DNA of 64,000 nucleotides from Gemmatimonadota bacterium (GCA_039589195.1 JBDHHV010000002.1:1126-65125); one strand, 5' to 3'. Shown: positions 30,187-48,887, counted from the stretch's first letter. The notes: a model not told the origin generated them from the sequence alone. Made by a program: numbers and translations.

Positions 30187-31142
30187 CAGTCGAGACCTTC
30201 CTCCAGGATCAGCCTCAGGTAGTGCCCGTAATCGGTGTGCTCGATCGGCTCGATCGTCTTCGCCAGCCCGACGGTGTCGATGAAGCCCATCCGGTACGCG
30301 ACCTCCTCCGGACAGGCGATCTTGAGCCCCTGGCGGTCTTCTACGGTGCGGATGAAGTTCGCGGCCTCCAGCATGGAACCCGGGGTCCCGGTATCGAGCC
30401 AGGCGTCGCCCCGCCCCAACTTCTCCAGCCGGATCGCACCGCGCTCGAGATAAGCGCGGTTCAAGTCCGTAATCTCGAGCTCGCCGCGCGCGGAAGGTCT
30501 CAGGCCGGAGGCTAGCTCCGAAGCCTGGCCGTCGTAGAAGTAGAGCCCCGTGACCGCGTAGTGTGAGCGCGGCTGTCGTGGCTTCTCCTCGAGACCTATG
30601 ACACGGTTCTCGGCGTCGAACTCCGCCACCCCGTACCGTTCCGGATCGTGGACCCGGTAGCCGAACAGGGTTGCCCCGTTCAGCTCGGCGGCGGCCCGGC
30701 GCAGACGCGAGGCGAGGCCGTGCCCGTAGAAGATGTTGTCCCCGAGGATCAGAGTGGATGGCTCGGCCCGCAGGAACTCATCTCCGATCACCAGGGCCTG
30801 GGCGATCCCCTCGGGCGCCGGCTGCACGGCGTAACGCAGGTCGAGCCCCCATTGCGCCCCGTCCCCGAGCAGGCGCTCGAACGCGGCCTCGTCCTCTCGC
30901 GTCGTGATGACGAGGATCTCCCGAATCCCGCACAGCATCAGCGTGCACAGCGGATAATAGACGAGCGGCTTGTCGTAGACGGGGAGCAGTTGCTTGCTGG
31001 CGGCCCGCGTCATCGGGTGGAGCCGGGTTCCGGAGCCGCCGGCGAGCAGGATCCCACGCCGGGTCGAGACGGGGATCGCCGCCGGACGCGCGCTTGCTCG
31101 CTCGCCTGCTCGCGCGGGAGACGAGTCCCGCTCGACCGCCAC
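30186..31142 (-). CDS. rfbA: Glucose-1-phosphate thymidylyltransferase. GTG start chosen after the rfbB stop; the track ORF start at 31295 would overlap rfbB.
   Basis: [36 protein letters not shown] matches the RmlA N-terminus. EEKP...GLYFYD motif. Confidence 0.8.
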
Positions 31143-31165
31143 CGCGGCGGTCCCGGCTTCCCCGC

Positions 31166-32227
31166 TCACGCGCTCACCCCCAACCGCTCGCCGCCATACG
31201 TCGTCTCGCGGGTGCGGGCCCACCAGGTCTCGTGGTCCAGGTACCACTGGATCGTGCGTCCGAGACCCGTCTCGAAGCTCTCGAGGGGCTCCCAACCCAA
31301 CTCGCGGCGCGTCTTGCTCGCGTCGATCGCGTATCGTCGATCGTGCGCGCGTCGGTCGGCCACGAAGCTGATCTGACTCCGGAAGCTGCGGCCGTCACCG
31401 CGCGGGCGAATCGCGTCAAGGGTGTCACAGAGCTGGTTTACGACCTGGATGTTCTGCCGTTCGGCGCTCCCGCCTATCCCGTACGTCTCGCCGACCCGGC
31501 CCCGCAGCAGGACCGCCATGAGCGCCCGCACGTGATCCTCCACATAGAGCCAATCCCGCACATTGCGCCCATCCCCGTACACGGGGAGCGTCCTCCGCTC
31601 GAGAGCGCGCAGGATCATGTTCGGGATGAGCTTCTCGGGGAATTGGAACGGGCCGTAGTTGTTGGAGCAGTTCGTGACGATGACGGGCAGGTCGTACACA
31701 CGTTGCCACACGCGCGCGAAGTGGTCCGCGGCGGCCTTGCTGGCCGCATACGGCGAGTTGGGGTCGTACGGCGACGACTCCGTGAAGAAGCCTCGCGGCC
31801 CGAGCGTACCGAACACCTCGTCCGTGGATACGTGGATGAAGCGGAACTCGGTCTGATCGATCTCATCCGGGTCTACGTAGTGGCGGCGCGCTTCCGTCAG
31901 GAGGGTGCATGTCCCCACCACGTTCGTGTGCAGGAAGAGCATCGGCCCGTCGATCGACCGATCCACGTGCGACTCCGCGGCGAGGTGGAAGACGGCGCGC
32001 GGTCGATACTGCTCGAACAGCCGTCGAACCTCCGCGCCCTCGCAGATGTCCACCTGCTCGAAGCGATAGCGGTCGGACTGTTCCACCGAAGTGAGCGATT
32101 CAAGGTCACCGGCGTACGTCAGACAATCCACGTTCACGACCGCGTGCTCGGTCTCTCGGATCAGATGTCGGATGAGCGCGGAGCCGATGAATCCAGCCCC
32201 TCCCGTGACCATTATCGGTCGATTCAA
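31166..32227 (-). CDS. rfbB: dTDP-glucose 4,6-dehydratase. TTG start with a GGAGG Shine-Dalgarno; alternative ATG at 32212.
   Basis: [10 protein letters not shown] Rossmann. YAASKAAAD (YxxxK). RmlB-typical C-terminus. Confidence 0.88.
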
Positions 32228-32308
32228 CGACGCCTCCGTTGTCGTCCCGTCATTCGTGTGCCTCCCGGCGGCCTGCGCGTGCTCCCGCCGCCCGTGCCTG
32301 TTCCGCGC

Positions 32309-35300: not shown

Positions 35301-35809
35301 GCTACCCGCGCGCGGACCGGCTCCCGGGACGGCTGTTGGACCGGCTCGTGGGCCGGCTCCTGGGACGGCTCCTGGGCTCGTCGAGCCTGTTCCGCGGCCT
35401 GTTCTCGTGCAACCACCAGATCGGCGAGCGGCACTTCGTCCCCCGGCGTCCGGCCCTGGCCGTGCAGGGCGATCCAGGCGTCGGTGTAGCCCGCGGCCCG
35501 CATCTGGGTCGCCGCGCGACGGGCGGGACCGATCGATACGAAGTCGCCCACCTGTACCCGGTAGTAGCCAGCACCGTGCATCACGTGGATTGACCAGCGG
35601 TCGCCGACGGCATCGCTGACGGCCTCGAGCTCGAGCGCGGCGGCCGATGCGTCCGCGTGCGCGGCGACCTGGACCCGGTACCTGCGGTCGCCGTTCGCCT
35701 GCCCCGCGGCCGCGCTCGACAGAACCACGAGACCACCGAGCGAGCCAAGCAGAGCCCACACGATTCGCCTCCAGGGCTGGAGCCGGTGTCCTTCACGTGA
35801 TCGACACAT
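32309..35809 (-). CDS. Large secreted protein: N-terminal SPOR domain plus CBM9-like/DUF5916 family domain. Start reassigned to the ATG with GAGGAAAAGG Shine-Dalgarno.
   Basis: Signal peptide WRRIVWALLGSLGGLVVLSSAAAG. SPOR-like RYRVQVAAHADASAAALELEAV...YYRVQVGDFVSIGPARRAATQMRAAGYTDAWI. Pro/Ala/Glu linker. ~850-aa C-terminal region with beta-rich DUF5916-like features and aromatic C-terminus ...LSYWLSLD. Confidence 0.5.
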   Translation of the reverse strand: MCRSREGHRLQPWRRIVWALLGSLGGLVVLSSAAAGQANGDRRYRVQVAAHADASAAALELEAVSDAVGDRWSIHVMHGAGYYRVQVGDFVSIGPARRAATQMRAAGYTDAWIALHGQGRTPGDEVPLADLVVAREQAAEQARRAQEPSQEPAHEPVQQPSREPVRARVAETEVAQAPEADSERAPAAATAVTPATAPIVTPATAPVLQGFHDGGNCKMTYGWVWDSSRPNDAIDVDIYDSGRLVATVTAGNYREGLEDAGKGNGAHSFMYSFPDGGEPGERRLVEVRVAGTDVPLQQTPQWLDCPLPGDGPPAASPLDGEGRKQVRAARVRAGDIEVDGRLDDMVWRRAVFVQDFEQKGPDRGYPPRERTGVAFAFGEDALYVAARMEKKSPETLYAPVGRRDEPGIADRILVSLDTYLDRRTAYTFGVTAGGVRVDHHHPEDREGRTEGSYDPVWEAYTAPDSSGWTAEMRIPFSQLRFNEGDASTWGVNVRRWDPGGYLNAYWVVVPIHETGWASRFGTLVGIPTVQASRRFEVTPYGVATATFLDDEIAAPGEGRDTDTRFGVDLKAGLSSNLTLDATINPDFGQVEADPAEVNLTAFETRFEERRPFFTEGSQLLRGSGPDYFYSRRIGAVPQPNGLGNVVDAPKNGTIAGAAKLTGRLPSGLSVGGLVAVTTPEDVLTVDDLTGEVVPVALAPTTAFGVTRIQKEFGAHGSSAGFVLTGVERDLGSDTGLERRMSRRAYSGGGDWNLRFSEGTYELSGHAGFSTVQGDTSAIRLIQRSSARYFQRPDATHVQVDPTRTSLSGYTGGLRLAKLGGEHWLWDVGFNAESPGFEIKDSGILDSADDLELTGGLRYREAGRSGPFRHYTLGLALGAGWNFEGVRQFTSPSLFASGTWDNFWRTWLRVGFQTRALSDDLTRGGPLMGTASAVDATVGLSSSAAAVNQWSLSARSFFDEFGGWSFSVDGWVAVRPSSNLELALSPGYLRASDSRQFFGEMLGSSDATFGRRYVFSRLDRSEIYAQLSASLGLAPDLTVELHAEPFASSGSFLDFGELAEAGGRELRLYGTDGTTVGPTEDGSLIVTDGDETFTLWNSDFNVRSFRTNAVVRWEWRRGSTLFLIWQQNRWYWDEQGDLVSPGSLFRAVGDVGENILVAKLSYWLSLD

Positions 35810-36515
35810 GTGCCTTTTCCTCGAGTTGGTGGAACGACACGAGCTCGATTCCGGAATCCGACAGCGTCTGTCGCACACCCGGGTCGCAGAGCACCGCGAG
35901 CTCGATCGCACGCTCGGTGGCGTAGGGCGCGCCGGCGTCCGCATCAGCACCGGGATGACACCCCACCTCCGTCACGCCGGGCTCGAGCCCGGTCAGAATC
36001 CGGAGCAGGCGATCGAGGGAGATTCCGTCCGGGAAGGGCTCGCCCTTCCCGGTCTGGCCGTAGAAGTCACCGCAGTATCGAACGGAGCCGAGCCCACGCA
36101 CCGGGACGCCGAGCTCTGCGGCAATCGCGAGCACGGCGGATCTCGCAGGCTCGCCGGAGTGCACGTGCTGGTGGGAGTCGATGTGTGTGGGTTCCAGGCC
36201 CGTCATGCTTCGAAAGGCTCTCAGCTGTCTCTCCAGCTCTTCACCGACTGCCGCCGGGTCCGCGGTCGGCACGACCTCGTAGAGTGCCGACCACCGGCCG
36301 TCGCGATGCACCCACTCTCCCAGATCCAGGTGCAGCCCGAGGCTCAAGTCCGGGAAGCTCCTGGCCGCGTGCACCGCCGCCTCGGCATGCGGGCGGCGGA
36401 CGAGCACGCTCGCGCTCGTCACGACTCCGCGCTCGTGCGCTTTGAGCACGCCCCGGTTGACACCCGGACTGAGCCCGAAATCGTCGGCGTTCACGATCAG
36501 TCGGCGTTCGGTCAC
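35793..36515 (-). CDS. YdjC/ChbG/HpnK family carbohydrate deacetylase. GTG start.
   Basis: IVNADDFGLSPGVNRGVLKAHERGVVTSASVL and HIDSHQHVH motifs of the YdjC family. Confidence 0.75.
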   Translation of the reverse strand: MTERRLIVNADDFGLSPGVNRGVLKAHERGVVTSASVLVRRPHAEAAVHAARSFPDLSLGLHLDLGEWVHRDGRWSALYEVVPTADPAAVGEELERQLRAFRSMTGLEPTHIDSHQHVHSGEPARSAVLAIAAELGVPVRGLGSVRYCGDFYGQTGKGEPFPDGISLDRLLRILTGLEPGVTEVGCHPGADADAGAPYATERAIELAVLCDPGVRQTLSDSGIELVSFHQLEEKAHVSIT

Positions 36516-36711: not shown

Positions 36712-37260
36712 TCAACGCAGGGCTTCGACGAAGAGGCTCTCCGCCTCGCGGTTGTCCAACTCGGTGATCCCGGCATGCCCGCATCGCGTCTCGCGGAAAC
36801 CGCACCGCTGCACAAGAGAGAAACCCGCTTGCAGAAGCAACTCCTCGATGAAGTCGTATGTGAACAGCGTCCTCGAGTGGCCGTACCAGATGAGCTGGAG
36901 TACCATCTTGGCACCGATCGCCTTCGCGTCCTCGTCGGGGATGAGGAAATAGTCGGTGTCACCCGCCTCGTAGGCCTGCATGGCACGCTCGAGATCGGGA
37001 AGCGCGAGACGCAGGATCCCGCCGGGCTTCAGCACCCGGCGGAGCTCGGTGAGCACGGGCACGAGATCCGGGTAGGGGATCTCCTGCAGTGCGTGGATGG
37101 AGACCGCGTAATCGATGTTCGCGTCCGGTAGCGGCAATCCGTCCTTGACGTCGCACGCGTGCTGGATCCCGGGACCCTGCTTCGCGTCCGAGTTGATCCA
37201 GCCCGGCTCACCATGGGCACCGCACCCCCAGTTGAGTCGACGGACCGGCGAGCTCGTCAT
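36712..37260 (-). CDS. Class I SAM-dependent methyltransferase. Start reassigned to the ATG overlapping the upstream stop (ATGA).
   Basis: LNWGCG(A) motif I and LKPGGILRL post-I/II motifs. ~180 aa. Confidence 0.7.
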   Translation of the reverse strand: MTSSPVRRLNWGCGAHGEPGWINSDAKQGPGIQHACDVKDGLPLPDANIDYAVSIHALQEIPYPDLVPVLTELRRVLKPGGILRLALPDLERAMQAYEAGDTDYFLIPDEDAKAIGAKMVLQLIWYGHSRTLFTYDFIEELLLQAGFSLVQRCGFRETRCGHAGITELDNREAESLFVEALR

Positions 37261-38309
37261 CGAGGCCCCATGTCCAGCAGGACAGCGGCGTTCAGGGCGG
37301 TGGTCAACCAGTCCGTGCGGTGCTCGTGCGGAGGGGTCCAATCCGCGCCCCAACCCAGCCACTGGACCGCGACGATCAGCCGACAGGCCTGAAGACTCGA
37401 CTCGAAGGTGGCCCGGTCCGTTCGATACTCGGTCGGCAACGCCTCACGGTACGCAGCCGCGATTCGATCGCGCGCGGGCTCACTCCAATCTCCGGCGGTC
37501 AGGGCCGCCAGGTCGAAGAGCCCGGGGCCGAAGCCGGCGAGCTCCCAATCGACTGGCCGGACGACAGCCGACCCCCGCTTCTCTTCGAGCAAGACGTTCG
37601 AGGGATAGAAGTCACCATGTATGAGGGTCCGGGGGAGCTGGAGGACGAAGTCGACCGCCCGGAGGTAGGGTCCCGCGAGTCGCTCGAGGGCGCGCCGCGT
37701 CCCCTTTTCCGCGCGCGCGCTGGCGAATTGGCAAGCACGAGAGTACCAACCTCGCAGCAACCGCGGCGTATATTCCAGAAGCCGTGCGGCGCGGCAGGCC
37801 ACCTGAAAGCGCGTGATGGCCTGGCCTCTCGCGTGAAAGCCCGCGAGCCAGGCCGCGACTTCCTCCCAGCGCTCGATCGCCTCGAACTGGTATAGCTCAC
37901 GACCACGTATCCGCTCCAGGAGGAGCCATGAGCCGGGGGTCGCCCCGCGCGCACGCACGACCCCATAAAGGAATGGGACGTCCGGCTCCCGGTCCGCGAG
38001 CAGCGCGCGGTAGACCAGCACCTCTCTCATGCCATCGTACACATGAGTGGGCTTGCCATCGGATCGATCGGCGAGCGATCCGCCGACATCGATTCGTTTG
38101 AGCATCAGAGGCAGCGTGGATCCATCGGCTAGCTCGCCTTCCGCCTCGAGCAGGGTGTGGGTCGTGGCGTAGCGCGACCGTCGCCACCGAAGGCCGGCCA
38201 TTCGCGGGCGTCGTCGGTCCCGCCCCAGCGTCTCCGCGATCGCGAGGGCGAAATCCGTGTCGTCCGTGCCCGGGAGTCCGGGGCCGGGTGACGACGTGGC
38301 GGACGTCAA
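37257..38309 (-). CDS. Phosphotransferase (APH/choline-kinase-like protein kinase fold) family protein
   Basis: HGDFYPSNVLL (HGDxxxxN catalytic loop) and VDWELAGFG (D-W-E). ~350 aa. Confidence 0.65.
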   Translation of the reverse strand: MTSATSSPGPGLPGTDDTDFALAIAETLGRDRRRPRMAGLRWRRSRYATTHTLLEAEGELADGSTLPLMLKRIDVGGSLADRSDGKPTHVYDGMREVLVYRALLADREPDVPFLYGVVRARGATPGSWLLLERIRGRELYQFEAIERWEEVAAWLAGFHARGQAITRFQVACRAARLLEYTPRLLRGWYSRACQFASARAEKGTRRALERLAGPYLRAVDFVLQLPRTLIHGDFYPSNVLLEEKRGSAVVRPVDWELAGFGPGLFDLAALTAGDWSEPARDRIAAAYREALPTEYRTDRATFESSLQACRLIVAVQWLGWGADWTPPHEHRTDWLTTALNAAVLLDMGPR

Positions 38310-39460
38310 GCGATCCCCACCCGGCCCAACAGAGCCGTGAGAACGCTGTCCGAATCGAAGTGGCTCCGCGCGAGCGCACGGGCTGCGCGGGAGTGTGGCC
38401 TGTAATCGCGGCGGATGGCTCGAAGTCCCTCCGCCGCTTCATCCAGGGTCGTGAAAGCGCACAACCCGGCACCCGTCGGCAGGTAGCGCGAGAAGCCGGT
38501 CTCCTGCGCGAGGACCGGCCGGCCCGATGCCAGATAGCAGACGCTCCGATCGGAGAACCAGCCGCACGCGGCTTCGACGTATCCGGACTTGGCGACGCCG
38601 AGCTCGGCGAAGGAGTCGACGACGAAGCGGCGGTAGCGGTCGGGAGTACCAGCCGACTGCGTGGGATCCACGAGGACCCAGCCGCCGGCACGCAGCGAGG
38701 CCAGGTCGTCTCGTTCGTCGGGGTGTACGGTGAGCGCCAGCCGAACGCGCTCGTCCGCCAGTCTGGGCAGCTCCATCAGGGGACGGAGCGCGTGCGCCTT
38801 CTGCCCATAAAAAACGCCTTCGTGTCGAATCGAACCGTATGCGCGCCAGTTGGCCACCGTCGTGAACGACGCCTCGGCGGGCTCGCGGTTCGACTCGACG
38901 AGCGGCCAATACGGGAGCACCACGGGGGGTAGCGTCGGGATCCAGCTCCGCCCGCACGTCGGTATCGTGCAATCCGCCTCGGCCAGACCCGGCCCCACCG
39001 TGGCGAAATGCGTGTGACCCTCCAGCCCCAGATCCAGCCCCTCCACGGCGCTCCACAGCTGCGTGAAGCCGGGGTCGAGATCCACGTACAGGCGGGTGGG
39101 GATCGGTCCGGTGATCTCCCGGTCGCGGAGGACGCCGGACAGGTTGACGAGCAGGTCGGCGCGTCCGGCCGCGTCGATCACGCTCTCGTACGGCATGCCC
39201 ATGGCCCTGCGAGCGCCGGGGACGAGCAGCGCGGCCCTTCCGGCGAGACCGAAGCGTCGGCAGACACGGCCGAAATACTCCTCGACCGCCGGCCCGGACA
39301 CGGAGTCATCGAGCGGCTCGACGAGGGTGACCTCCCAGCCAAGCCGCCGGAGCCCCAGGGCGTATTGAAGCACCGCCCAGGTAGCGCCACCCTGCCCCGG
39401 GGTCCCGGCGAAGCGGCCGCTCACGATCGCCGTCCGTCGGCGAGACGAGGCGGGGATCAA
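38306..39460 (-). CDS. Divergent GT-B fold (GT4-like) glycosyltransferase, paralog 1 of 3 tandem copies. TTG start with GGAGAGGG Shine-Dalgarno.
   Basis: N-terminal Rossmann half with G-rich loop (GTPGQGGATWAVLQYALGLRRLGWEV). C-terminal half GWFSDRSVCYLASGRPVLAQETGF resembling the GT4 EAMA-G-PV donor-binding region. Paralogous to 39457..40635 and 40643..41884. Confidence 0.5.
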   Translation of the reverse strand: MIPASSRRRTAIVSGRFAGTPGQGGATWAVLQYALGLRRLGWEVTLVEPLDDSVSGPAVEEYFGRVCRRFGLAGRAALLVPGARRAMGMPYESVIDAAGRADLLVNLSGVLRDREITGPIPTRLYVDLDPGFTQLWSAVEGLDLGLEGHTHFATVGPGLAEADCTIPTCGRSWIPTLPPVVLPYWPLVESNREPAEASFTTVANWRAYGSIRHEGVFYGQKAHALRPLMELPRLADERVRLALTVHPDERDDLASLRAGGWVLVDPTQSAGTPDRYRRFVVDSFAELGVAKSGYVEAACGWFSDRSVCYLASGRPVLAQETGFSRYLPTGAGLCAFTTLDEAAEGLRAIRRDYRPHSRAARALARSHFDSDSVLTALLGRVGIA

Positions 39461-40635
39461 GCCGCCCTCTCCACGGGTCCGACGCGATCGAGAAACTCGC
39501 CCAGCACTCGGCTCGAGTCCAGATAGTGCTCGGCGAGCGCCCGGGCGGCGCTCGAATGCTCATCGTAGTCCCGCCGGATCCGGGCAGCGCCCGCGACGGC
39601 GTCCTCGAGGGTCCGGAACGTGAGCAGGCCGGCGTCGGTGGGCAGGTCCGAGAACCCGGTGTCCTCCACCAGCGCGGGTCTACCGGAGGCCAGATAATGG
39701 GCCGTCCGGTCGCTGAACCACCCGCTTAGCGTCTCGACGTAGATCTCCTGGGCGGCGGAGAACTCCGCATCGGATGCTTGGATGTAGCTCCGGTACGTGG
39801 CCGGATCCGGCACCACATCCCGCGGATCCACCAGCGACCATCCGTGCGTCCGCAGGGCATGCAGATCGACCGAGTCGCCGGGGTCGATCTGGAGGGCGAT
39901 CTCGAACCGCCCCTCGGCTCGTCTGGGGACGTCCAGGTACTCGCGAAACCGGTGCGCTTTCAGGCCCAGTCGACGGCCATCCCGGTGGAGAGAACCGAAC
40001 GCGCCACGCCAGCTCGCGACGGTTGTGAATCGGGGCTCCCGGCCAGCGTATCCGGCGCCCTCGGACGAGGGCCATTCCTCCATGAGCACCGGCGGCCGGA
40101 ATGGCTGCCACGCGAGACCACCGTCGGGTATCGCGCACCCCGCGAGCCCCACGTTGGCGCCCACGGTGAAGAAGGCCGTGTGGTCCCCGAGGCGTCCTCC
40201 GAGACCCTCGTCGTGCCAGAACTGGGTGAAGCCGGGGTCCAAATCGATGTACGCGCGGCGCGGCACGCGAGTCATGAACGGTTCGAGCGTCAGGTGGCCG
40301 CTCATGTTGACGAGCAGGTCGGCGTCGCCCGCCAGGTCGGCCAACTCCCCCGGTCCGAGCCCCGAGACCGGCTGCCCGTCTCGGGTCACGAGCGCTGACC
40401 GCTCCCCCAGTCCGAACTCACGCATCACGGCGTCGAAGTGGGCGCGGTGACCGCTGTCGCTCGGCGCGCACCGCTCGCCCAAACCGTCGGTGCATAGGCC
40501 CGGATCGATCTGCTCGAGGAAGTACACTTCCAAGCCGAGGCGCGCGAGACCGACCGCCCAGGTCATGCGAACCCACGCTTCGCCCGCGTTTCCGAGCTTG
40601 TTCGCCACCGCGCCCGCCACGATCGCGATCGTCAT
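39457..40635 (-). CDS. Divergent GT-B fold glycosyltransferase, paralog 2. Start reassigned to ATG at 40635; the track ORF extension overlaps the upstream gene.
   Basis: MTIAIVAGAVANKLGNAGEAWVRMTWAVGLARLGLEV...GWFSDRTAHYLASGRPALVEDTGF. Same architecture as its neighbours. Confidence 0.5.
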   Translation of the reverse strand: MTIAIVAGAVANKLGNAGEAWVRMTWAVGLARLGLEVYFLEQIDPGLCTDGLGERCAPSDSGHRAHFDAVMREFGLGERSALVTRDGQPVSGLGPGELADLAGDADLLVNMSGHLTLEPFMTRVPRRAYIDLDPGFTQFWHDEGLGGRLGDHTAFFTVGANVGLAGCAIPDGGLAWQPFRPPVLMEEWPSSEGAGYAGREPRFTTVASWRGAFGSLHRDGRRLGLKAHRFREYLDVPRRAEGRFEIALQIDPGDSVDLHALRTHGWSLVDPRDVVPDPATYRSYIQASDAEFSAAQEIYVETLSGWFSDRTAHYLASGRPALVEDTGFSDLPTDAGLLTFRTLEDAVAGAARIRRDYDEHSSAARALAEHYLDSSRVLGEFLDRVGPVERAA

Positions 40636-40642
40636 ACGCGAC

Positions 40643-41884
40643 TCACCCTGGTCCGACCGTGATGGGGGGTTGGGACGTCGGTCCTTGAGGATCGATCGGG
40701 CCCTGCGGAAGCGAAGCCGCCATTTCGTCCAGCAATCGTGCGAGCACGCGGTCGCTGTCGAGGTAGGCCTCGGCCAGCTCGCGGGCGGCACGCGCGTGGC
40801 GCTCCCAGTCGGCGTCGATCTGCGCGACGCCCACCACCGCACCTTCGAGGTCCGCGAACGAGAGCAGTCCCTCACCGCTCGGAAGAGCCGCTTCGAAGCC
40901 CGTGTCCGATGCGAGCACGGGTCGCCCACTGGCCAGATAGCAGGCCGACCGGTCGCTGATCCAGCCGCTTCGGGTCTCCGTGTAGAGCGCCTTCGCGACC
41001 ATCAACTCGGCACGCGAGCCGGCGATGAAGCCCCGATAGGCGTCGGGCCCGCCCGCGACGGTCAGCGGGTCCTGGATGGTCCACGCCGATTCGCTCAGGC
41101 GAGCGAGATCCGCTCGTTCGTTCGGGTGGATGTCCAGCGCGACGCGGAACTGCTGGCCTGTCCTCGAGGGGAGAGAGAGGAGCTCGCGGAATGCGTGCGC
41201 GCGCAGACCGTACGTATGGCCTTCGAACTCCAGCGAGCCGCTGTCGCCGCGCCATGTCGCGACCGTGGTGAAGCCGTCGCCCGGGTCCACGACCCGGGGC
41301 CACTCCTCGAGCACCACCGGGGGTAGCGTCGGAATCCACTCAACTCCGCACGCTGGGATCGTGCAGCCGGCGGACCCGATGCCCGTGCCGACGGTGACGA
41401 AGGCATCGTGCCCGGTGAACAGGTCCACGAGCCCCAGTTGGTGCCACATCTGGCCGAACCCGGGATCCAGGTCGACGAACACTCTGCGCTCGGGAGCGGA
41501 AAGGACCTCCTCGTCCGTCCAGTAGCCCATGAAGTTCAGGAGGAAGACCGAGCTCAGCGCATGGTCGATGACCGAGTCGCGCGACCGACCCAGATAACCC
41601 TCACCCTCGCACAGAAGGGCCCATGCGTCCGTCAAGCCGAAACGGTCCATGCAACGAGCGAAGTAGGCCAACTGGACCGAGTAGCGCGGCGCGCACGGGT
41701 GACCGGCGGCGTCCGTGCACATGTCCCGCTCCAGCCGGTCCAGAAACAGTACGTCCCAGCCAAGCCTCCGCAGCCCCAGCAGGTACTGGAGAAAGACCCA
41801 CACATGGCCGGCGCGGCGGTACCGCTGCGCGACGCCGCCTGCGACGATGATGCGTCCCCTGCTCCGAGCGACGCGGCTGCTCAT
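40643..41884 (-). CDS. Divergent GT-B fold glycosyltransferase, paralog 3
   Basis: RIIVAGGVAQRYRRAGHVWVFLQYLLGLRRLGWDV...GWISDRSACYLASGRPVLASDTGF. Confidence 0.5.
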   Translation of the reverse strand: MSSRVARSRGRIIVAGGVAQRYRRAGHVWVFLQYLLGLRRLGWDVLFLDRLERDMCTDAAGHPCAPRYSVQLAYFARCMDRFGLTDAWALLCEGEGYLGRSRDSVIDHALSSVFLLNFMGYWTDEEVLSAPERRVFVDLDPGFGQMWHQLGLVDLFTGHDAFVTVGTGIGSAGCTIPACGVEWIPTLPPVVLEEWPRVVDPGDGFTTVATWRGDSGSLEFEGHTYGLRAHAFRELLSLPSRTGQQFRVALDIHPNERADLARLSESAWTIQDPLTVAGGPDAYRGFIAGSRAELMVAKALYTETRSGWISDRSACYLASGRPVLASDTGFEAALPSGEGLLSFADLEGAVVGVAQIDADWERHARAARELAEAYLDSDRVLARLLDEMAASLPQGPIDPQGPTSQPPITVGPG

Positions 41885-41893: not shown

Positions 41894-43234
41894 TCAGGCG
41901 CCCACGCCCGCGACGGGCGGTGGGATCAGCGCCGGCTTGTCCAGGTATCCGAACGCCCCCAGCGCCGGTCCCAGAGACTCATCGCAAGCCCGTAGCAGGT
42001 CGGGTGGCAGGTCCCGGCGCCAGCGTCCCACCGACGACGCGGGGTCTCTCGCGGTGCGGTGCTGCTCCACGCCCGGCATCCCGCGGGCCGCGTCCTCGAG
42101 CAGGGTACCCGCGGTGGACTCATCCGCCGGGAGATCCAGGTATTCGAGAAGCCGTATCACGGTCGGGATGGGGCGCAGGATGAGGTCCTCGTACCGCACC
42201 AGGTGTGCCTTGTCCGAGCGCGCCTCCCACTGGCCGCGGATGGCTTCCGCCTGGGAGGTGAATTGACGGATCCAGTCCGAGTCGCTCTCGGCCCGGTCGC
42301 GGCCCCAACCGGTGTGCCCGCGTTTCTCGATAAAGGCGAGGATGGAGCAGACCACGTCCCGGAAATCACGCACCAGCACGATCTCCTTGGGCGCGGAGTA
42401 GAGCTCCCAGACCAGGTCCGGGATGTGCCCGCGCATCATGAGCTTCTCGGCATAGTAAACCGGTGTCTCGAGCTCCGAGAGACCGGCGATCTCGCCGTAC
42501 AGGGTGTCGATCTGCCGCTGACAGAAGCTCGCCAGATCCCGCGCCCGGGTCCCACTCAGGCGGGCATCCAATGCCGGGTCCATGGGAGGCGGCCTGAAGC
42601 CGGGGCCGCCCGCCCACCAGTTGTCGCCGAGATCGGTCGGGATCGTGAGCTGTCGCAGGTAGCTGTCGGGGTCGACGAGCGTGCGGAACAGCTCGAACCA
42701 GTACATGGTCACCCGCGCTTCGTACGGGAAGCGGCCATGCACGACGATCTTCGGACTCGCGTCCAGCAGCCGCATCATCCAGGTGGAGCCGCTCCGGCCC
42801 AGGGTCGTCAGCATGAGCGGCTGTAGCCGCGGCGCGTAGTCGCTCATCAGCTCGGGGCGGCGGCCCTCGATCGTCGCCACGGTCGCCCTGCGACCGTTCT
42901 CGAACACCACCCGCACGAGCAACGTGAAGTCCCGAGACAGACCCGCCAGACCGATCAGACACCTGAAGCCCGAGCGCTCGACTCCCGGGGCGCCGGCATG
43001 CAGTTGGGCGATGTCCGGACGCTCGATGTCCACGGGTCCACGGGCCACGGTCACGCCGCGGTCCAGGACCTCGACTTCAGCGACAGCTGCGTCCGCGCCT
43101 ACGGCCCACCCGCGGATGGCGAGGTGCGAGGCCGTCCTGGTACCCGTGTGCCGGGGCTCATCCAGCCCGTGCGCCTTGAGTCCCTCGGTTCCCGCGGGTG
43201 ATTTGACGATGCTGTGGATGTCGAACCCGTTCAC
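41894..43234 (-). CDS. Sulfotransferase family protein with a ~130-aa N-terminal accessory domain
   Basis: 5'-PSB-like TTLGRSGSTWMMRLL and 3'-PB-like RDFRDVVCS PAPS-binding motifs. N-terminal domain related to the N-terminus of the neighbouring GT2 (43231..45192). Confidence 0.72.
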   Translation of the reverse strand: MNGFDIHSIVKSPAGTEGLKAHGLDEPRHTGTRTASHLAIRGWAVGADAAVAEVEVLDRGVTVARGPVDIERPDIAQLHAGAPGVERSGFRCLIGLAGLSRDFTLLVRVVFENGRRATVATIEGRRPELMSDYAPRLQPLMLTTLGRSGSTWMMRLLDASPKIVVHGRFPYEARVTMYWFELFRTLVDPDSYLRQLTIPTDLGDNWWAGGPGFRPPPMDPALDARLSGTRARDLASFCQRQIDTLYGEIAGLSELETPVYYAEKLMMRGHIPDLVWELYSAPKEIVLVRDFRDVVCSILAFIEKRGHTGWGRDRAESDSDWIRQFTSQAEAIRGQWEARSDKAHLVRYEDLILRPIPTVIRLLEYLDLPADESTAGTLLEDAARGMPGVEQHRTARDPASSVGRWRRDLPPDLLRACDESLGPALGAFGYLDKPALIPPPVAGVGA

Positions 43235-45192
43235 TCGTCCGCCCCCCCGTCTTCCGTTTCTTCCCCGTCACCCGGCGGGCACGCGCCGCCGGCCATCGCC
43301 TCGTACGGAAACGCCGCCCGAGCTTCCTGGATGGTCTCGTCCCACAGATGAGTGTGCAGCCAGGCGTTGAAGCGGGTGTTCAGCGAGCGTGCCGCCGATG
43401 GATACGACTGGCCCTCGAGGTGGTACAGCTCCGCATCGGGCAGATACCAGGATGCGAGCCCTCGCTCGAACAGCCGCAGGCAGAGGTCCGAGTCTTCGAA
43501 ATCCCCCTGTACGTAGACACCTCGCAGTCCGCCCAACTCCTCGTAGAGAGCCCGCTCCAACAGCACGCAGGCACCGGTCACCGCCGGTACGCGTCGAGTC
43601 AGGTTGGCGGCAGGGAGCGACCGCGGCATGCCCTTGAAGTAGTGCATGTTCAGCCACACGTCGTTGCCCGGCTGGCGGTCGAAGTACATGCCCGCGTGCT
43701 GGAGCGTATCGTCCTCGTACAGGAGCTTCGCCCCGAGGGCTCCGATACGCGGCGTCTCGTCGTAGAACGAACGCATCTTCCCGAGCCACCCCGGGTGGTG
43801 CGGCAGCACATCCGAGTTGAGCAGCAGAGCCAGCCGCCCACGCGCGGCTCCAACCCCCAGGTTGTTCGCCGCTGAAAAGCCCCCGTTCCGATCCAGCGTT
43901 ACCACTCGAAACGGCACGCGATACAGGTCGTGGAGCTGCGGTGCCGAGATGGCCAGGGCGTCGGCCTGATCGGGCGAATCCAGCACGTAGATGAGGTCCA
44001 CCTCTCGCATCGCCGGATCGTGCACGAACTGAGCGAGCTGCGCCTCCAGGAACTCGAGGCGTCGGTACAGCGGGACGATGATCGAGATCTCGGCGGCGGC
44101 GGGCGTCGCCCCGTACTCCGTGATCTCCGCCACGGCCACTTGATCCATGAGGCGCGTCTGCAGTCGGTTCAGCGCGGGCGCGAGGTGGTCGGTCAGGAGC
44201 GTCTCGGCAGGCCGGGTCTCGCCACCGAGCTGTTTCAGAAGCGCTCGCCGAACACGCTCCGGATCCTTGATCACCGGAGGGGCGGCCGTGACGGCCCGAT
44301 CACCCTCCGCGTTCGTCATCTCGACCCGCCAGCCGTGCGGGAGCCGGCTCGGCCCTCGTGTTCCGAAACGCGCGCAGAAGCCCGTCGAGGTGGAATGTTC
44401 GGCGCCCGCGGGTGCATAGAACTTCTCTACATCGGGGCGCCGGAACCTGTGCAGCGTGTCGAACACCGAAACCCGGTGTCCCTCGGGCGATACGAGCCGG
44501 AGGTCCACGACGCGGGCCTCGCGGTCGTGCAGCCAGCCTCGCACGAAGAAGGTCTCCTCGTCGATCGAGAAGATCTCGTCGACGTGCAGGCCGCGCGGCT
44601 CCTCGGATGCGATCACCACAGGATCCGGAGACTCGCATAGCAGATCGCGTGCGATGGCGAGGGCGCGGCTGGTCTCGAACGGGACCGGCAGCCCGAGCTT
44701 GCGTGGAACCCCCGCCAGGAAGTCCGCCAGACGCCCCCGATCCCTGGCCGGCAGTGGCACGAGCCCGCCCAGGAGCAGGGTGTCCAGGTCGGTCAGCGAC
44801 TTGGAGAGGTCCGAGGGACCGAGCGTCAGGACTCGGTCGCCGGACCGGACCGCAAGACGTCCCATACGGGAAGCGGCTCGTGGGGGCCGGAGCAGGCGCA
44901 CGGCGACCACCTTCGCGGGGCTTGGATCCTCCGGAGGGGGATCGGAGCGCGCGTACGACTCGAAGCATGCGTCGAGGGACTCGAGCTGGCCGTCTCGCTC
45001 GAGCGCGAACTCGATCTCACCGTCCGGTGCCGGGAACCAGCCCACGAGGATCAGAATTTCCTCGCCCAACCAGGCGGCGTAGTCCACCCAACCACCCAGG
45101 CTGTCGGGGATCCACGCGGACTCCGCGACCGCGCTCCCTGGGGCTGCCACCCCGACCGATCCTCTCGTCTCATCCGGCCGATCGGGTCTCAT
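43231..45192 (-). CDS. GT2 family glycosyltransferase with a long N-terminal accessory region. Start reassigned to the ATG overlapping the upstream stop.
   Basis: SIIVPLYRR...DSP... DxD-containing GT2-A fold. LLNSDVLP. QxxRW-like region. Confidence 0.78.
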   Translation of the reverse strand: MRPDRPDETRGSVGVAAPGSAVAESAWIPDSLGGWVDYAAWLGEEILILVGWFPAPDGEIEFALERDGQLESLDACFESYARSDPPPEDPSPAKVVAVRLLRPPRAASRMGRLAVRSGDRVLTLGPSDLSKSLTDLDTLLLGGLVPLPARDRGRLADFLAGVPRKLGLPVPFETSRALAIARDLLCESPDPVVIASEEPRGLHVDEIFSIDEETFFVRGWLHDREARVVDLRLVSPEGHRVSVFDTLHRFRRPDVEKFYAPAGAEHSTSTGFCARFGTRGPSRLPHGWRVEMTNAEGDRAVTAAPPVIKDPERVRRALLKQLGGETRPAETLLTDHLAPALNRLQTRLMDQVAVAEITEYGATPAAAEISIIVPLYRRLEFLEAQLAQFVHDPAMREVDLIYVLDSPDQADALAISAPQLHDLYRVPFRVVTLDRNGGFSAANNLGVGAARGRLALLLNSDVLPHHPGWLGKMRSFYDETPRIGALGAKLLYEDDTLQHAGMYFDRQPGNDVWLNMHYFKGMPRSLPAANLTRRVPAVTGACVLLERALYEELGGLRGVYVQGDFEDSDLCLRLFERGLASWYLPDAELYHLEGQSYPSAARSLNTRFNAWLHTHLWDETIQEARAAFPYEAMAGGACPPGDGEETEDGGADE

Positions 45193-46517
45193 GCAGCCGC
45201 CTCCGAGCGCTTCCGCTCCATCAGCTGGCGGTAGATGGCCGAGATCGACTTGACCGCATCTTCCATCCAATACACCTCGGGAATTCCGGTCTGGAGGCGA
45301 GCCCACAGCTCGGGGTCACGAGCCGCCCGCGCGATCGTGCGCGCGAGGGAGCGCGGATCCCCGGCCCGGAAGTGCAATCCGCTGACGCGGTCCTCCACTT
45401 TCTCCGCCATGCCGCCGATATCGCTGCAGATCACCGGTCGCCCGTGCATGAACGCTTCCTGAATCACGAGCGGGGAGTTCTCGAACCAGATCGAGGGGAT
45501 GACCACCCAGTCGATCGCGCGCATCAGATCGGGCAGCTCGGATGGCTCGTAACGGCCCACCATGGTGACGCGCTCGCGAGTCGCGTCGAGCTGCTCCTCG
45601 AACTCGCGCCGAAACTCGGGGGACCGGAACTCCAGATTCGCGCCATGTAGCCAGACGCGGGGCCGGGGGTCCGTCACGACCTCGTCGGCCAGGATTTTCA
45701 TGGCCTCGAGGAGGACCGTCACTCCCTTGAACGGGCTCAGCTGCCCGAAGAACGCGAATCGATTGCGGGGGCGCTCGGGATCGTCGAGTTCGATCGACCC
45801 CGGCTCGGGCTCGGGCGGACGAATCCGTCCGTTCGGCTCGAAGCGCAGCTTCTCCCGCGGGATGCCCCAATCCACGTAGCGGTCCACCAGGAAGCGGCTC
45901 GGCGCCAGGAAGAGGTCCACCAGCTCGAAGTGGGATTGGATGAAGCGCTTTCTGGCAAGGAACGCCTGCGGCGATATCTCGGGGAAGCACTCGTGGCAGC
46001 GCCGCGGCGAGGACTCCATACAAGGGCGGTCGTTCATGGTCCGCAGCATCTGACCATCCCGATGGCAGATCGGCAGGTACTCGTGCAGCGTGTACACGAT
46101 CGCCGAGTCCGGGAGCGTGTTTCGGATCTCGCGCAGGATGTCGACTCCCAGAAACAGCGTGTGCTGGAAGTGGACCACGTCGGGACGATACGAGAGCAGG
46201 ACATCCCTGAAGCTCTGCGTATACAGGCGCTTGTCCGGGACCGTCATGCGAAACAGATCGAAGGCGGAGCCCTCGGTATGGAAGAAGAGCTGGCCCTCGT
46301 CCTGGTTCACCCGAGACAGACGCGTCCCCGGGTGAGGAGCTGCCGCACGTGATACCGGCGGGCCGTTACGCGCCAACAAGACGGGGTCGAACTCGCCGGC
46401 CTTTTTGACGCCTTGGTACAGCTCCAGAGCGTAATTTTCTACGCCGCCGGGAACGATGGACGGGTGATTGTGGGTCACGTAGAGGACCCTCGGTCGTTCG
46501 CTGGATGCCGAGCTCAC
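45189..46517 (-). CDS. GT4 family (glycosyl transferases group 1) glycosyltransferase. GTG start.
   Basis: WFENSPLVIQEAFMHGRPVICSDIGGMAEKVEDRVSGLHF (E-X7-E region). Confidence 0.85.
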   Translation of the reverse strand: MSSASSERPRVLYVTHNHPSIVPGGVENYALELYQGVKKAGEFDPVLLARNGPPVSRAAAPHPGTRLSRVNQDEGQLFFHTEGSAFDLFRMTVPDKRLYTQSFRDVLLSYRPDVVHFQHTLFLGVDILREIRNTLPDSAIVYTLHEYLPICHRDGQMLRTMNDRPCMESSPRRCHECFPEISPQAFLARKRFIQSHFELVDLFLAPSRFLVDRYVDWGIPREKLRFEPNGRIRPPEPEPGSIELDDPERPRNRFAFFGQLSPFKGVTVLLEAMKILADEVVTDPRPRVWLHGANLEFRSPEFRREFEEQLDATRERVTMVGRYEPSELPDLMRAIDWVVIPSIWFENSPLVIQEAFMHGRPVICSDIGGMAEKVEDRVSGLHFRAGDPRSLARTIARAARDPELWARLQTGIPEVYWMEDAVKSISAIYRQLMERKRSEAAA

Positions 46518-47269
46518 GCCAGCCCTCGCGTCCCGGTCCCCGCTTCATCCAAGGCGTAGACGCGCGCGGTGTCTTCCCGGTGTGCTACCAGCCGGTAACG
46601 AGCCTCCAGATAACGGCCGAATGCCTCGTAATGCTCCAGCCACCAGTAGCTCGCGTGGGGGAGAACGAAGTAGCCGACACCGAGCGCCTTGAGCCGCTCC
46701 AGATGCTCGATGGCCGCCTCGCTGTCCTTTGGGTGATAACCCGCCCAGGTACCGTCGTCATCGGCGGGGAAATGACGGCCGATGCGGCCGTCGAGCTTGA
46801 GCAACATCGAGTCACCCCGACTGACCACCGACACCTGAGATCCCGGCGGGATGGTCGCCTCGATCAGCGAGCGGACGCGCTGGACCAGCGCATCGTAGTC
46901 GACGGGGCCGTTCGCCCGGTCTGCCCAGGGCGTGCCCGTGCCGAGCCCGGAAGTGTCGCCGCACACCCTCGGCTCCGGTCCGCCGGCAGCGGCGCCCGAG
47001 CGACTCCCCCTCGTCCCGAGCGCAGCAGTCTCACGGTGTAGCGCCGCGAGAATGGCACCCAGCTCGTTGATCCGGCGGGCGAGGTGTTCCTGCGATTCGA
47101 GCAGGCGCCGCTGTGAAGCGAGCAGAGCCGCCTCCATCCCCTGGATGCGACGCTCGAGCTCCTCGTAGCGGTCCGAGTCGGGCTCGCGCCGAGCCACCGC
47201 CAGGGCGGCGACCGCTTGTGCGGCAGCCTCTGCGCTCGCCAATCCGTTCGTCTTCATCGGCTTCCCCAT
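46514..47269 (-). CDS. Hypothetical protein: N-terminal coiled coil plus a conserved ~100-aa C-terminal domain of unknown function (shared with the next two proteins)
   Basis: Coiled-coil heptads (EELERRIQGMEAALLASQRRLLESQEHLARRINEL). C-terminus SRGD...HFPADDDGTWAGYHPKDSEAAIEHLERLKALGVGYFVLPHASYWWLEHYEAFGRYLEARYRL. Confidence 0.5.
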   Translation of the reverse strand: MGKPMKTNGLASAEAAAQAVAALAVARREPDSDRYEELERRIQGMEAALLASQRRLLESQEHLARRINELGAILAALHRETAALGTRGSRSGAAAGGPEPRVCGDTSGLGTGTPWADRANGPVDYDALVQRVRSLIEATIPPGSQVSVVSRGDSMLLKLDGRIGRHFPADDDGTWAGYHPKDSEAAIEHLERLKALGVGYFVLPHASYWWLEHYEAFGRYLEARYRLVAHREDTARVYALDEAGTGTRGLA

Positions 47270-47273: not shown

Positions 47274-48887
47274 TCAATAACTCCCTGCGGAGGTCACCCG
47301 ACCCTCGTCCTGCACGGTGCGCTCGTGGGCGGTGCTCGCCCGCGCCGCGCTCGAGGTCCGGTCTCCGGTCGTGAGCCTGTAGATCACACCCGCCGCATCG
47401 TCCGCGATCGTGCGGTAGTATCGTTCCAGGTGTTCGTGGAAGTCCGGGTACTTTTCGAACCACCACCTCGCGTTATCCGGGATCAGCAGGTAGTCGCCTT
47501 CCCCCCGCCCGCGCAGCGCTTCGAGCTGCGAGATCGCCTCCTCGCTCGAGGCGGGGTGGTGGCCGGCGTACACGCCGTCTCCGGTCTGTGGGAAGTGCGT
47601 GGCCCGAGCGCCCTCGACCGCGACCAGCTCGGGGTCTCCGTGGCTCACGACGAGTAGGGCCGCTCCGCGGGGGACGCTCGAGTCGGCGAGACTGCGCGCA
47701 CGGCGGACCTCCGCGCGGTGCCGGAGATCGCTTCCGGCCACGAACGCCGGGACCTCGCCGAGCGGGCCGGCTCTCGAGCAGGCCACAGCCTCCTCGAGAG
47801 CCAGGAGCCGGGACTCCAGCGCTTCATCCCGCCGGAGCTCGGTGCGAGGGTCGGGATCTCCCGTTCCCGAGGGCGTCACATCGGCACCAGCCCCCGTCAG
47901 GCGTGTGTCCCCGTCGGTGGTGGAGGCTTCGGGGGGAATGCCCAACTCCAGATGCGCCACGCGGGCCATCAGGCGAGTGGCCTCGCCCAGGAGCGCGCGC
48001 ACCTGTCGGGAGCGTGCCGCGAGGATCGCCTCCACGTCACCGGTGCGGGACCCGGGGTCGAAGAAGGCGAGCTCCGGGGCGACGTCCAGGGCGTGTGGGT
48101 ACGCGGACTCGTATGCAAAACGGATCAGGCCGTCGGCCAGATACTGGTCCACGTCATCGGGACGCACATGCTCCGACCACTGTTCCCGGTATCTGCGCAC
48201 ATTGTCGCGGTCGTGCCCGAAACGGCCCTCGGAGACGGATTCCAGGTGCTCAACCACGCACTCGGGGCAGTAATGGATCTCGCTGCCGGCTTCCCCCAGA
48301 CGCAGGCAGAGATCGACGTCCTCGAACCCGTTCCGGTAGCCCTCGTCGAACCCTCCCACACGATCGAAGGCATCGCGGCGGACCAGGATGCACGCCGCGG
48401 TCACCGCCTGGAGGCGTCGGGCCCGGTTCACCGCGGGGTGATCGCTCGGGAAGCCCGCGTACAGGTGGCGGGGATACCCATCCTGGCAGAAGACCACCCC
48501 GGCGTGCTGAACCGCCCCGTCAGGGTACAGGAGCTTCGCCCCCAGGGCGGCAGCTTCGGGGTGCGTGGCGGCGTAGCTCGTGAGTGCGTCGAGCCAGCCG
48601 GGATGCGGCCGGGTGTCGTTGTTCAGGAAAACCAGCCAACCGGCTTCGGATGCGGCCGCCCCCGCGTTGCAGGCGACGGCGAACCCGGCATTCTCCGGGT
48701 TGTCAACGACCCGAACCGCGTCCCCTCGCTCTGCGAGCACGCGGAAGGTGTCGTCCGTCGAGCCGTCATCCACGACGATCACTTCGTGCGACACCGCGGG
48801 GGGGTGCGCGAAGATGACTTCCAGACACCGGTCCAGCAGGGCGGCGGCGTTGAAGGTCGGGATGATGATCGAGCACTCGGGCATCAT
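47274..48887 (-). CDS. GT2 family glycosyltransferase fused to a coiled coil and the conserved C-terminal DUF domain. Start reassigned to ATG at 48887.
   Basis: MMPECSIIIPTFNAA...VIVVDDGSTDDT...GFEDVDLC GT2 motifs. C-terminus SHGD...HFPQTGDGVYAGHHPASSEEAISQLEALRGRGEGDYLLIPDNARWWFEKYPDFHEHLERYYR. Confidence 0.78.
   Translation of the reverse strand: MMPECSIIIPTFNAAALLDRCLEVIFAHPPAVSHEVIVVDDGSTDDTFRVLAERGDAVRVVDNPENAGFAVACNAGAAASEAGWLVFLNNDTRPHPGWLDALTSYAATHPEAAALGAKLLYPDGAVQHAGVVFCQDGYPRHLYAGFPSDHPAVNRARRLQAVTAACILVRRDAFDRVGGFDEGYRNGFEDVDLCLRLGEAGSEIHYCPECVVEHLESVSEGRFGHDRDNVRRYREQWSEHVRPDDVDQYLADGLIRFAYESAYPHALDVAPELAFFDPGSRTGDVEAILAARSRQVRALLGEATRLMARVAHLELGIPPEASTTDGDTRLTGAGADVTPSGTGDPDPRTELRRDEALESRLLALEEAVACSRAGPLGEVPAFVAGSDLRHRAEVRRARSLADSSVPRGAALLVVSHGDPELVAVEGARATHFPQTGDGVYAGHHPASSEEAISQLEALRGRGEGDYLLIPDNARWWFEKYPDFHEHLERYYRTIADDAAGVIYRLTTGDRTSSAARASTAHERTVQDEGRVTSAGSY

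Follow-up and report, generated by a model that had tools for sequence, protein, structure and literature searches.

Four ancient clades of a predicted GT-B glycosyltransferase family meet in one gene cluster of a Gemmatimonadota bacterium

A 64,000-nucleotide stretch of Gemmatimonadota bacterium DNA (GCA_039589195.1, JBDHHV010000002.1:1126-65125; hereafter the window, meaning the whole stretch that was analysed) carries three adjacent genes, A, B and C, whose products share one architecture, together with a fourth copy of the same module at the N-terminus of a larger protein, D, which continues into a GT2 domain. These copies belong to four clades that are shared across phyla and recur in a near-fixed set beside a kinase gene and a deacetylase-like gene. 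The A, B, C and D modules are probably an anciently diverged, non-redundant GT-B family whose members act at different steps in the making of one conserved glycan or glycoconjugate. The GT-B fold is already known, and so, probably, is the chemistry. What is new is an unclassified family with a distinct donor-site motif and a fixed four-paralog organization tied to the kinase and the deacetylase.

Organization and similarity of the four copies

The open reading frames (ORFs) of A, B, C and D are present on the minus strand at the coordinates given by the first-pass annotation of this DNA (Table 1) and lie in one long gene array that runs from about 56051 down to about 28658. The window is uniformly GC-rich (64-71%), and the GC content at third codon positions (GC3) of the four ORFs is 0.81-0.84, a coding-type value. 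Independent Joint Genome Institute (JGI) gene calls on near-identical metagenome contigs give proteins of 413, 392 and 372 amino acids (aa) for C, B and A. The JGI start of A, GTG 39424, is twelve codons shorter than TTG 39460. The latter is preferred here because it restores the first β-strand of the paralogs, has a Shine-Dalgarno-like site (GGAGAGG) upstream and overlaps the stop of B. B starts 7 nucleotides (nt) past the stop of C, and 4-nt start/stop overlaps occur at the B/A junction, as TTGA, and at the ATP-binding cassette (ABC) exporter/D, D/GT2 and kinase/methyltransferase junctions, as ATGA.

A comparison of the proteins shows identities of 44% for A/B, 47% for A/C and 45% for B/C (BLASTP, E 1e-95 to 1e-101). 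Residues 1-405 of D align collinearly with A, B and C over about 380-400 residues at 35-38% identity (E about 1e-57). This likeness is far beyond chance, and its overall range of 35-47% agrees with the roughly 35-45% estimated earlier. The motif LQYxLGLRRLGW is exact in A and C and reads MTWAVGLARLGL in B and LHYLIGLRRLGY in D, while DLDPGFTQ, exact in A and B, becomes DLDPGFGQ in C and ETDPVLPQ in D. A third motif, GW(F/I)SDR(S/T)..YLA(S/A), is common to all four. The first-pass annotation had described three adjacent genes of one architecture, and this description stands with minor variation of the quoted motifs from copy to copy. It had also placed a fourth copy at the N-terminus of a GT2 fusion (48884-51427), and the alignments locate that module there, with the GT2 domain following it (PF00535 at residues 458-623, E 7e-25; PF13641, E 1.5e-14).

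Table 1. Features of the window, with coordinates counted from its first nucleotide
Feature	Coordinates	Strand	Description
Paralog A	38306..39460	-	384 aa from TTG 39460; clade A
Paralog B	39457..40635	-	392 aa; clade B
Paralog C	40643..41884	-	413 aa; clade C
Paralog D protein	48884..51427	-	847 aa
GT-B module of D	50255..51427	-	N-terminal ~390 aa, about residues 8-391 (hmmsearch envelope); clade D
GT2 domain of D (GT-A type)	49403..50065	-	About residues 455-675; PF00535, PF13641
Aminoglycoside phosphotransferase (APH)-fold kinase	37257..38309	-	PF01636, E 6e-17; directly downstream of A; start TTG 38309 or ATG 38201
Class I S-adenosylmethionine methyltransferase	36712..37260	-	PF08241; start overlaps kinase stop as ATGA
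YdjC-family carbohydrate deacetylase-like protein	35793..36515	-	PF04794, E 6e-49; below-cutoff ChbG and HpnK matches
Sulfotransferase	41894..43234	-	PF13469, PF00685; directly upstream of C
691-aa GT2 protein	43231..45306	-	Same operon as GT4
Canonical GT4	45189..46517	-	Assigned by Pfam
251-aa protein	46514..47269	-	Helical N-terminal half, heptad-like by eye, and U251 domain
GT2 protein, 537 aa (JGI)	47274..48887	-	C-terminal U251 domain; overlaps D stop as ATGA
ABC exporter, fused transmembrane and nucleotide-binding domains	51424..53295	-	PF00664, PF00005; below-cutoff MsbA, ChvA and HepA matches; overlaps D
919-aa protein	53292..56051	-	First gene of cluster; GH2-like TIM-barrel N-terminus and GT2
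U251 domain copies	46517-46897; 47277-47714; 48953-49315	-	In the 251-aa ORF, at the GT2 C-terminus and at the D C-terminus, respectively; by alignment
rmlD, rmlC, rmlA, rmlB	28658..32308	-	dTDP-L-rhamnose synthesis

Predicted fold and family membership

The AlphaFold2 model of C, built on a 123-sequence alignment, has a predicted local distance difference test score (pLDDT) of 93.3 and a predicted template modeling score (pTM) of 0.92. It contains two Rossmann-like β/α halves, with β-α repeats at residues 11-138 and 203-343 and terminal crossover helices at 346-390. A Foldseek comparison of this model with the PDB returned GT-B glycosyltransferases as all of its top 50 matches, each with probability 1.00. 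The leaders are of GT4 type: tll1591 (7FGA), the tetrahydrobiopterin glucosyltransferase BGluT (5ZER), the methylmannose-polysaccharide mannosyltransferase ManT (7QSG), PimA (4N9W), BshA and MshA. The top matches have E-values of 3e-11 to 1e-6, template modeling (TM) scores of 0.5-0.6 and identities of 10-15%. The predicted fold of the A-D family is GT-B, as the first-pass annotation had proposed, and is structurally nearest to GT4.

Sequence models place the family at the margin of what is classified. No Pfam model scores above its gathering threshold in A, B, C or the D module, and PF00534, PF13692 and PF13579 give no match at threshold in any of them; the window's true GT4, by contrast, scores 82 bits. 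PF13439 reaches 12.6 bits against a cut-off of 28.5, in A only. The sole Pfam family near threshold is PF13524 (Glyco_trans_1_2, CgeB-like), which scores 16.7 bits in A and 20.9 bits in C against a cut-off of 25 and has no match in B or the D module. Its signal comes from the last ~100 residues of the donor domain, and the N-terminal domain of the family and its DxDPG and GWFSDR motifs lie outside that model. A precomputed PF13524 match is present in about 28 of 120 homologs among the matches listed, and some homologs and fusion proteins pass the cut-off, such as P0142 at 34.9 bits. As judged by these scores, the family sits at the edge of PF13524. The comparison with PF13524 and CgeB yielded no functional link of the family to spore-coat maturation.

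With the limit relaxed to E<=1, the NCBIfam scan still gave none of the three proteins, nor the D module, a glycosyltransferase match, and the best E-values in a sequence search of the PDB, 0.44 with a 4-sequence profile and 0.68 with a 123-sequence profile, are not significant. Family members carry the public names 'hypothetical protein' or a generic 'glycosyltransferase', and a literature search found nothing on the A-D family. The earlier suspicion that the family is uncharacterised is upheld by this lack of a Pfam match above gathering score, an NCBIfam model or a PDB sequence relative.

The missing Pfam glycosyltransferase match is also what would favor another enzyme of Rossmann type, for instance an epimerase or an ATP-grasp ligase. 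The high-confidence model and the unanimous GT-B identity of its top structural matches speak against such a fold, as do the homologs that reach PF13524 and the scores of A and C just under its cut-off. A fold other than GT-B, named by the first-pass annotation as a finding that would overturn its proposal, is extremely improbable and effectively refuted.

The putative donor site

The family profile was aligned with the window's single GT4 by hhalign. The alignment is collinear, but with a single-sequence template its probability of 1.4% carries no meaning, and it was used for motif register only; the residues of the cleft were placed solely from alignment and secondary structure. Several features resemble GT4: the two-domain GT-B fold, with best structural matches at E about 1e-11, a glycine-rich loop that follows strand one, a strand of pattern 'xGxPV(I/L)' behind the donor helix, and a soluble or peripheral character with no transmembrane segment in A-D by hydropathy scan. 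W211-R212-G213 lies opposite the phosphate-binding 'KG' motif of GT4, with the basic R212 at the 'KG' position. GWFSDRS-CYLASGRPV lies opposite the segment IWFENSPLVIQEAFMHGRPV of the window's GT4 (IWFENSP..MHGRPV).

The motif that defines the GT4 donor site is EX7E, whose second Glu binds the nucleotide ribose. In the A-D family it is replaced by G-W-F-S-D-R-S: the first Glu is a Ser with an adjoining Asp, and the second falls in a deletion that makes the helix 3 residues shorter, its equivalent position being Cys in A and C, Arg in B and Thr in D. The proposal that the C-terminal half is GT4-donor-like with atypical motifs is supported by this register. Further differences are the family's 10-15% identity to GT4 enzymes, its scores below the Pfam GT4 thresholds, its occurrence as a fixed set of four paralog classes, and an extra, poorly structured and conserved segment of ~50 residues between the domains (residues 150-200), with the pattern GHD..VTxG..C.IP..G..W.

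Despite the divergence of the four clades, many residues are conserved in every one of them, mostly at 90-100%: G16, G26, W29, N117, G120, D140-P141, H159, W211, R/K212, K/R228, E293, G307-W308-F-S310-D/E311-R312, Y316, P322, Q326, D/E327, T328 and G329. Other positions distinguish the clades. In the order A, B, C, D, position 20 is G/A, N, Q and K, position 27 is A, E, H and V, and position 315 is Cys, Arg, Cys and Thr; position 230 is His in A-C and variable in D, and position 298 is Gln in B only. A metal site formed by C56, C174, C179 and C315 was considered and rejected, since C174 alone is common to all clades.

The two halves of the module diverge to different degrees. Between clades, the C-terminal (donor) half is 46-49% identical (41% to D), and the N-terminal (acceptor) half 37-40% (29% to D). 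The shared putative donor residues and the more divergent acceptor half would fit a set of four active enzymes whose donors are related and whose acceptors differ, and are compatible with the suggestion of the first-pass annotation that each copy may add a different residue or linkage.

Four clades in at least seven phyla

The family is large. A word-indexed search gave more than 5300 matches. When 1.84 billion representatives were scanned in full with HMMER, 5020 clusters (50% identity) passed E<=1e-3, and 1241 of them also passed E<=1e-30. Relatives are encoded in more than 500 stretches of one-genome-per-species contigs, and the best 77 of these loci, mostly in metagenome-assembled genomes (MAGs) and each taken with 10 kb on either side, provide the locus statistics given below. 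They come from Solirubrobacterales and other Actinomycetota, Acidimicrobiia, Gemmatimonadota, Planctomycetota, Verrucomicrobiota, Acidobacteriota, Chloroflexota and one member of the Pseudomonadota (Alcaligenaceae). Genera named for related MAGs include Conexibacter, Chthoniobacter, Ca. Solibacter and Pedosphaera. The family spans at least seven phyla and is typical of soil phyla that are abundant and poorly cultured.

Scanning these loci with the family hidden Markov model (HMM) reveals about three copies per locus, often with a fourth in a large protein. Average-linkage clustering on identity divides 211 full-length copies into four clean clades of 58 (A), 62 (B), 73 (C) and 18 (D) members, and each clade contains one of the window paralogs. 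Identity is 51-57% within clades, 42-44% among A, B and C, and 35% between D and the rest. Of the 75 loci in which a full-length copy occurs, 53 contain exactly one A, one B and one C, and in 15 of these a D also lies no more than 10 kb away. Among the loci that deviate are short or truncated contigs and some whose extra copies did not pass the full-length filter.

Adjacency, a single architecture and a common strand are what would be expected if the genes had arisen by recent tandem expansion in one lineage and their functions overlapped or were redundant, and the first-pass annotation had called the subfamily expanded. The window paralogs, however, are closer to their orthologs in other phyla (51-57%) than to their own neighbors (42-47%), the four clades are clean, and the order C, B, A recurs across phyla. 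Since the clades are shared across phyla, the duplications are older than the system's spread, be it vertical or horizontal. Recent redundant duplication is very unlikely and effectively refuted; in place of a local expansion there are four ancient orthologous groups that co-occur one of each across at least seven phyla.

One locus departs from this pattern in its own way. An Alcaligenaceae MAG (L012, 1885-9890) is the sole locus with three tandem clade-C copies, together with one B and no A. It is the only proteobacterial match in the best 77 loci and an exception to the one-each rule.

Conserved partners and gene fusions

Partner genes were counted by BLAST of each window protein against the 77 loci, with positional analysis for adjacency. 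Single-linkage clustering of neighbor ORFs had merged all of them into one component, given overlapping stop-to-stop ORFs, high GC and fusions, and was replaced by this targeted BLAST. Homologs of the APH-fold kinase are found in 55 loci and of the YdjC-family protein in 45. Both had been left unlinked to the trio by the first-pass annotation, and both prove to be co-conserved with it. The GT2 protein at 47274-48887 has homologs in 51 loci, the 919-aa protein in 29, the sulfotransferase in 26, often directly upstream of C, and the methyltransferase in 24.

Gene order is conserved as well. A is followed by the kinase in 46 of 54 cases and the kinase by YdjC in 32 of 53, while B is followed by A in 27 of 58. 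C is followed by B in 40 of 70 cases and by a methyltransferase in a further 15. The five genes C, B, A, kinase and YdjC form a core that occurs on several long contigs without a large cluster.

Fusion proteins, classed by clade-specific HMMs and Pfam, join the same partners. B-A fusions are represented by P0142 and by single ORFs in two Gemmatimonadota loci (L013, L044), and A-kinase fusions by P0155, P0188 and P0251. Six representatives (P0245, P0255, P0260, P0263, P0220 and P0228) join the ABC exporter to D, and such a protein has the layout of an exporter with a C-terminal cytoplasmic GT-B (+GT2) extension in one polypeptide. D often forms the N-terminus of larger proteins that combine it with GT2, U251, sulfotransferase-like or methyltransferase parts. 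The top-150 representatives include 38 clade-C proteins, and in every one of them C stands alone.

The co-occurrence of the paralogs and the B-A fusions suggest their physical association. Paralogous or split GT-B proteins that work only together are known from GtfA/GtfB and Alg13/Alg14, where GtfB serves GtfA and Alg14 serves Alg13 as a non-catalytic partner. The main rival to four active enzymes is built on this precedent: A, B and C would form an obligate hetero-oligomer with one or two catalytic subunits, the others being acceptor-binding or chaperone-like pseudo-glycosyltransferases. The strict one-each co-occurrence in 53 of 75 loci, the B-A fusions with the translational coupling of B and A, and the presence of GtfA/B-type proteins among the weak PDB sequence and Foldseek matches are all in its favor. 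In GtfA/GtfB and Alg13/Alg14, however, one partner has lost its catalytic residues, whereas all clades here keep theirs: R/K212, K/R228, E293, GWFSDR and DTG are retained at putative donor positions in all four. No clade displays the decay expected of a pseudoenzyme, and within-clade conservation is alike in all four (51-57%). This pattern of conservation argues against a pseudoenzyme partner, and we regard a hetero-oligomer with non-catalytic subunits as unlikely.

A second rival concerns the donor. The APH fold includes the anomeric sugar kinases NahK and AmgK, and the GT-B fold includes phosphorylases (GT35) and the GT4 trehalose phosphorylase. The A-D proteins could on this account be sugar-1-phosphate-dependent, phosphorylase-like transferases supplied by the APH-fold enzyme acting as an anomeric sugar kinase. 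The missing second Glu of EX7E, with Cys, Arg or Thr by clade, and the tight link between A and the kinase, adjacent in 46 of 54 cases and naturally fused in others, would agree with this. The kinase, as read from its translation, has the catalytic-type motifs HGDFYPSN and DWE. Its best family matches, however, are generic (homoserine or thiamine kinase, E about 1e-6) and include no sugar-1-kinase. Moreover, many GT-B families bind nucleotides without EX7E, and dTDP-rhamnose genes lie in the same operon here. Sugar-1-phosphate dependence appears improbable, more so than the hetero-oligomer. The dTDP-rhamnose genes were themselves considered as evidence of a rhamnose donor for A-C and rejected: rml homologs occur in 1-4 of the 77 loci, local to this genome and outside the conserved core.

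A further recurrent element is U251, a domain of ~110 aa with the pattern VVSxGD..LL.l..R..HFP..G.yaGyHP.dS.eAI.hLE.lr..G..yl.lP....WWl..Y (VVSxGD..HFP..G.yaGhHP..WW..Y for the D copy). It is present in proteins of 45 of the 77 loci, with as many as six copies in a single related locus (L011), and in related loci it is joined to modules of GT2, GT4 and clades A, B and D. Neither Pfam nor NCBIfam has a model for it, and the 251-aa protein that contains one copy has no match in either database. The AlphaFold2 model of that copy (pLDDT 90.9) has an α/β fold, for which Foldseek found no PDB match at E<=0.001 and only weak, partial Rossmann-like matches (E>=0.02, TM<0.5). U251 may have a docking or regulatory role in the system.

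Two long metagenome contigs (L081 and L084) have a divergent core, YdjC<-kinase<-A / C->B, like the Actinomycetota loci. Several methyltransferases (Methyltransf_24, _21 and _23), a hexapeptide acyltransferase and an Acyl_transf_3+GT2 fusion follow, with no exporter in view. By analogy, and speculatively, this layout recalls pathways for polymethylated, acylated polysaccharides.

Comparison with O-antigen assembly

In ABC-transporter-dependent O-antigen assembly, glycosyltransferases with one or several modules work in multiprotein complexes, and kinase-methyltransferase terminators end the chain (PMC3482155, PMC11231755). The systems compared here are those of Escherichia coli O9a and Klebsiella pneumoniae O3 and O7, with the GT4 mannosyltransferases WbdA, WbdB and WbdC, the terminator WbdD and ABC export. 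Likenesses in the window are paralogous GT-B modules distributed over single- and multi-module proteins, an ABC exporter in the same operon, a kinase gene translationally coupled to a methyltransferase gene, rhamnose genes and a protein with a coiled-coil-like helical segment. The kinase and methyltransferase pair (36712-38309) in particular recalls the WbdD chain terminator.

Among the differences, the exporter is a fused MsbA-like half-transporter (PF00664 + PF00005), not the ABC-2-type Wzm/Wzt, the kinase and methyltransferase have no sequence match to WbdD, and no WecA/WbaP-type initiator was seen in the scanned window genes or in five annotated related loci. The system is also found in monoderm Actinomycetota, which account for many of the carriers and lack lipopolysaccharide. 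The likeness to ABC-dependent O-antigen assembly is an analogy of organization only. Tested for membership, the family falls outside both GT4 and PF13524, and it departs from O-antigen-type assembly on two of the three points tested. Its closest relatives are, by structure, GT4; by sequence, the edge of PF13524; and by organization, WbdABC/WbdD-type assembly.

A model for the four enzymes

From these patterns we infer a scheme for catalysis, donors and acceptors, the order of the steps, export, and the roles of the kinase and the deacetylase. The four modules would catalyse four distinct glycosyl transfers at the cytoplasmic face, with similar activated-sugar donors and different acceptors for A, B, C and D. 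They would act as an assembly line, C and B being usually adjacent and B and A sometimes one polypeptide, and B, A and the kinase would function together as a unit. YdjC would remove the N-acetyl group from an N-acetylhexosamine in the product, and the kinase would phosphorylate the product. D and its GT2 domain would act beside the MsbA-like ABC exporter, which would carry the product through the membrane. The sulfotransferase, the methyltransferase, the GT4, the further GT2 proteins and the dTDP-rhamnose genes of this window would decorate or extend the product.

Several observations weigh against this reading of the four modules as distinct enzymes of one exported glycan pathway. The EX7E motif of the GT4 donor site is absent from the A-D family in the hhalign register, so that the use of nucleotide sugars is read from the fold only. 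ABC exporter homologs occur in only 20 of the 77 loci, D lies within 10 kb in only about 18, and several core-only loci show no exporter within 10 kb. In such loci the product may be cytoplasmic, for example a methylated polysaccharide, or it may be a glycoconjugate; alternatively, the remaining genes may lie elsewhere. The kinase and methyltransferase have no detectable sequence similarity to WbdD, which makes the terminator analogy a functional speculation. A lipid-linked pathway and the repeating unit envisaged by the first-pass annotation are both conjectural: neither the window nor five related loci annotated with Pfam yielded an initiating phosphoglycosyltransferase, Wzx/Wzy or Wzm/Wzt; the initiating transferase may be encoded elsewhere in the genome.

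A more far-reaching version of the same scheme is conceivable, and we put it forward tentatively, as doubtful. A-D would found a new family and form an obligate multi-enzyme machine, with B-A-kinase and ABC-D-GT2 sub-complexes possibly docked by U251. The machine would make an undescribed glycan, phosphorylated, de-N-acetylated and often sulfated or methylated, that is common to Actinomycetota, Acidobacteriota, Planctomycetota, Verrucomicrobiota, Gemmatimonadota and Chloroflexota, monoderm and diderm soil phyla alike. In its most unusual form, sugar-1-phosphates from the fused kinase would replace nucleotide sugars.

The finding matters in several ways. The family is large and has no Pfam, NCBIfam or PDB anchor, and the tie of its paralog set to a kinase and a deacetylase, and by way of fusions to an ABC exporter, turns an anonymous family into a defined, testable pathway. 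It predicts a conserved, so far undescribed surface or storage glycan of soil bacteria. Annotators gain four separable orthologous groups, and a GT-B donor site without EX7E and a ~110-aa domain without a solved structural neighbor are targets for structural work. These gains are to be set against the many uncharacterised glycosyltransferase families that exist: the finding is widely distributed, and its function rests on inference.

Other genes of the region

The GT2 domain of the 919-aa protein has a synthase-type extension (PF13632), and the protein has four hydrophobic segments. GTGA overlaps flank the GT4/GT2 block, at the junctions of the U251-containing 251-aa ORF with GT4 and of the 691-aa GT2 protein with the sulfotransferase. 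Between the glycan and rml genes, a 1220-aa protein (32309-35971) has an N-terminal SPOR domain and DUF5916, with homologs in 10 of the 77 loci.

Beyond the array, two tandem paralogs of ~1300 aa (18317-22153 and 22154-26170), each rich in FG-GAP/VCBS repeats and with two ASPIC/UnbV domains, lie directly downstream of an S9 prolyl-oligopeptidase-family gene (25947-28595) and are absent from the 77 related loci by BLAST. Sizeable ORFs with coding-type GC3 and no Pfam match at E<=0.001 are found at 13868-15172, 15296-17536 and 59399-60680. A gene at 56371-57180 lies downstream of a LytTR two-component pair (57373-59438) and shortly before the start of the glycan operon. Its 269-aa product has a multihaem cytochrome c region of reaction-centre type and, behind it, TPR repeats.

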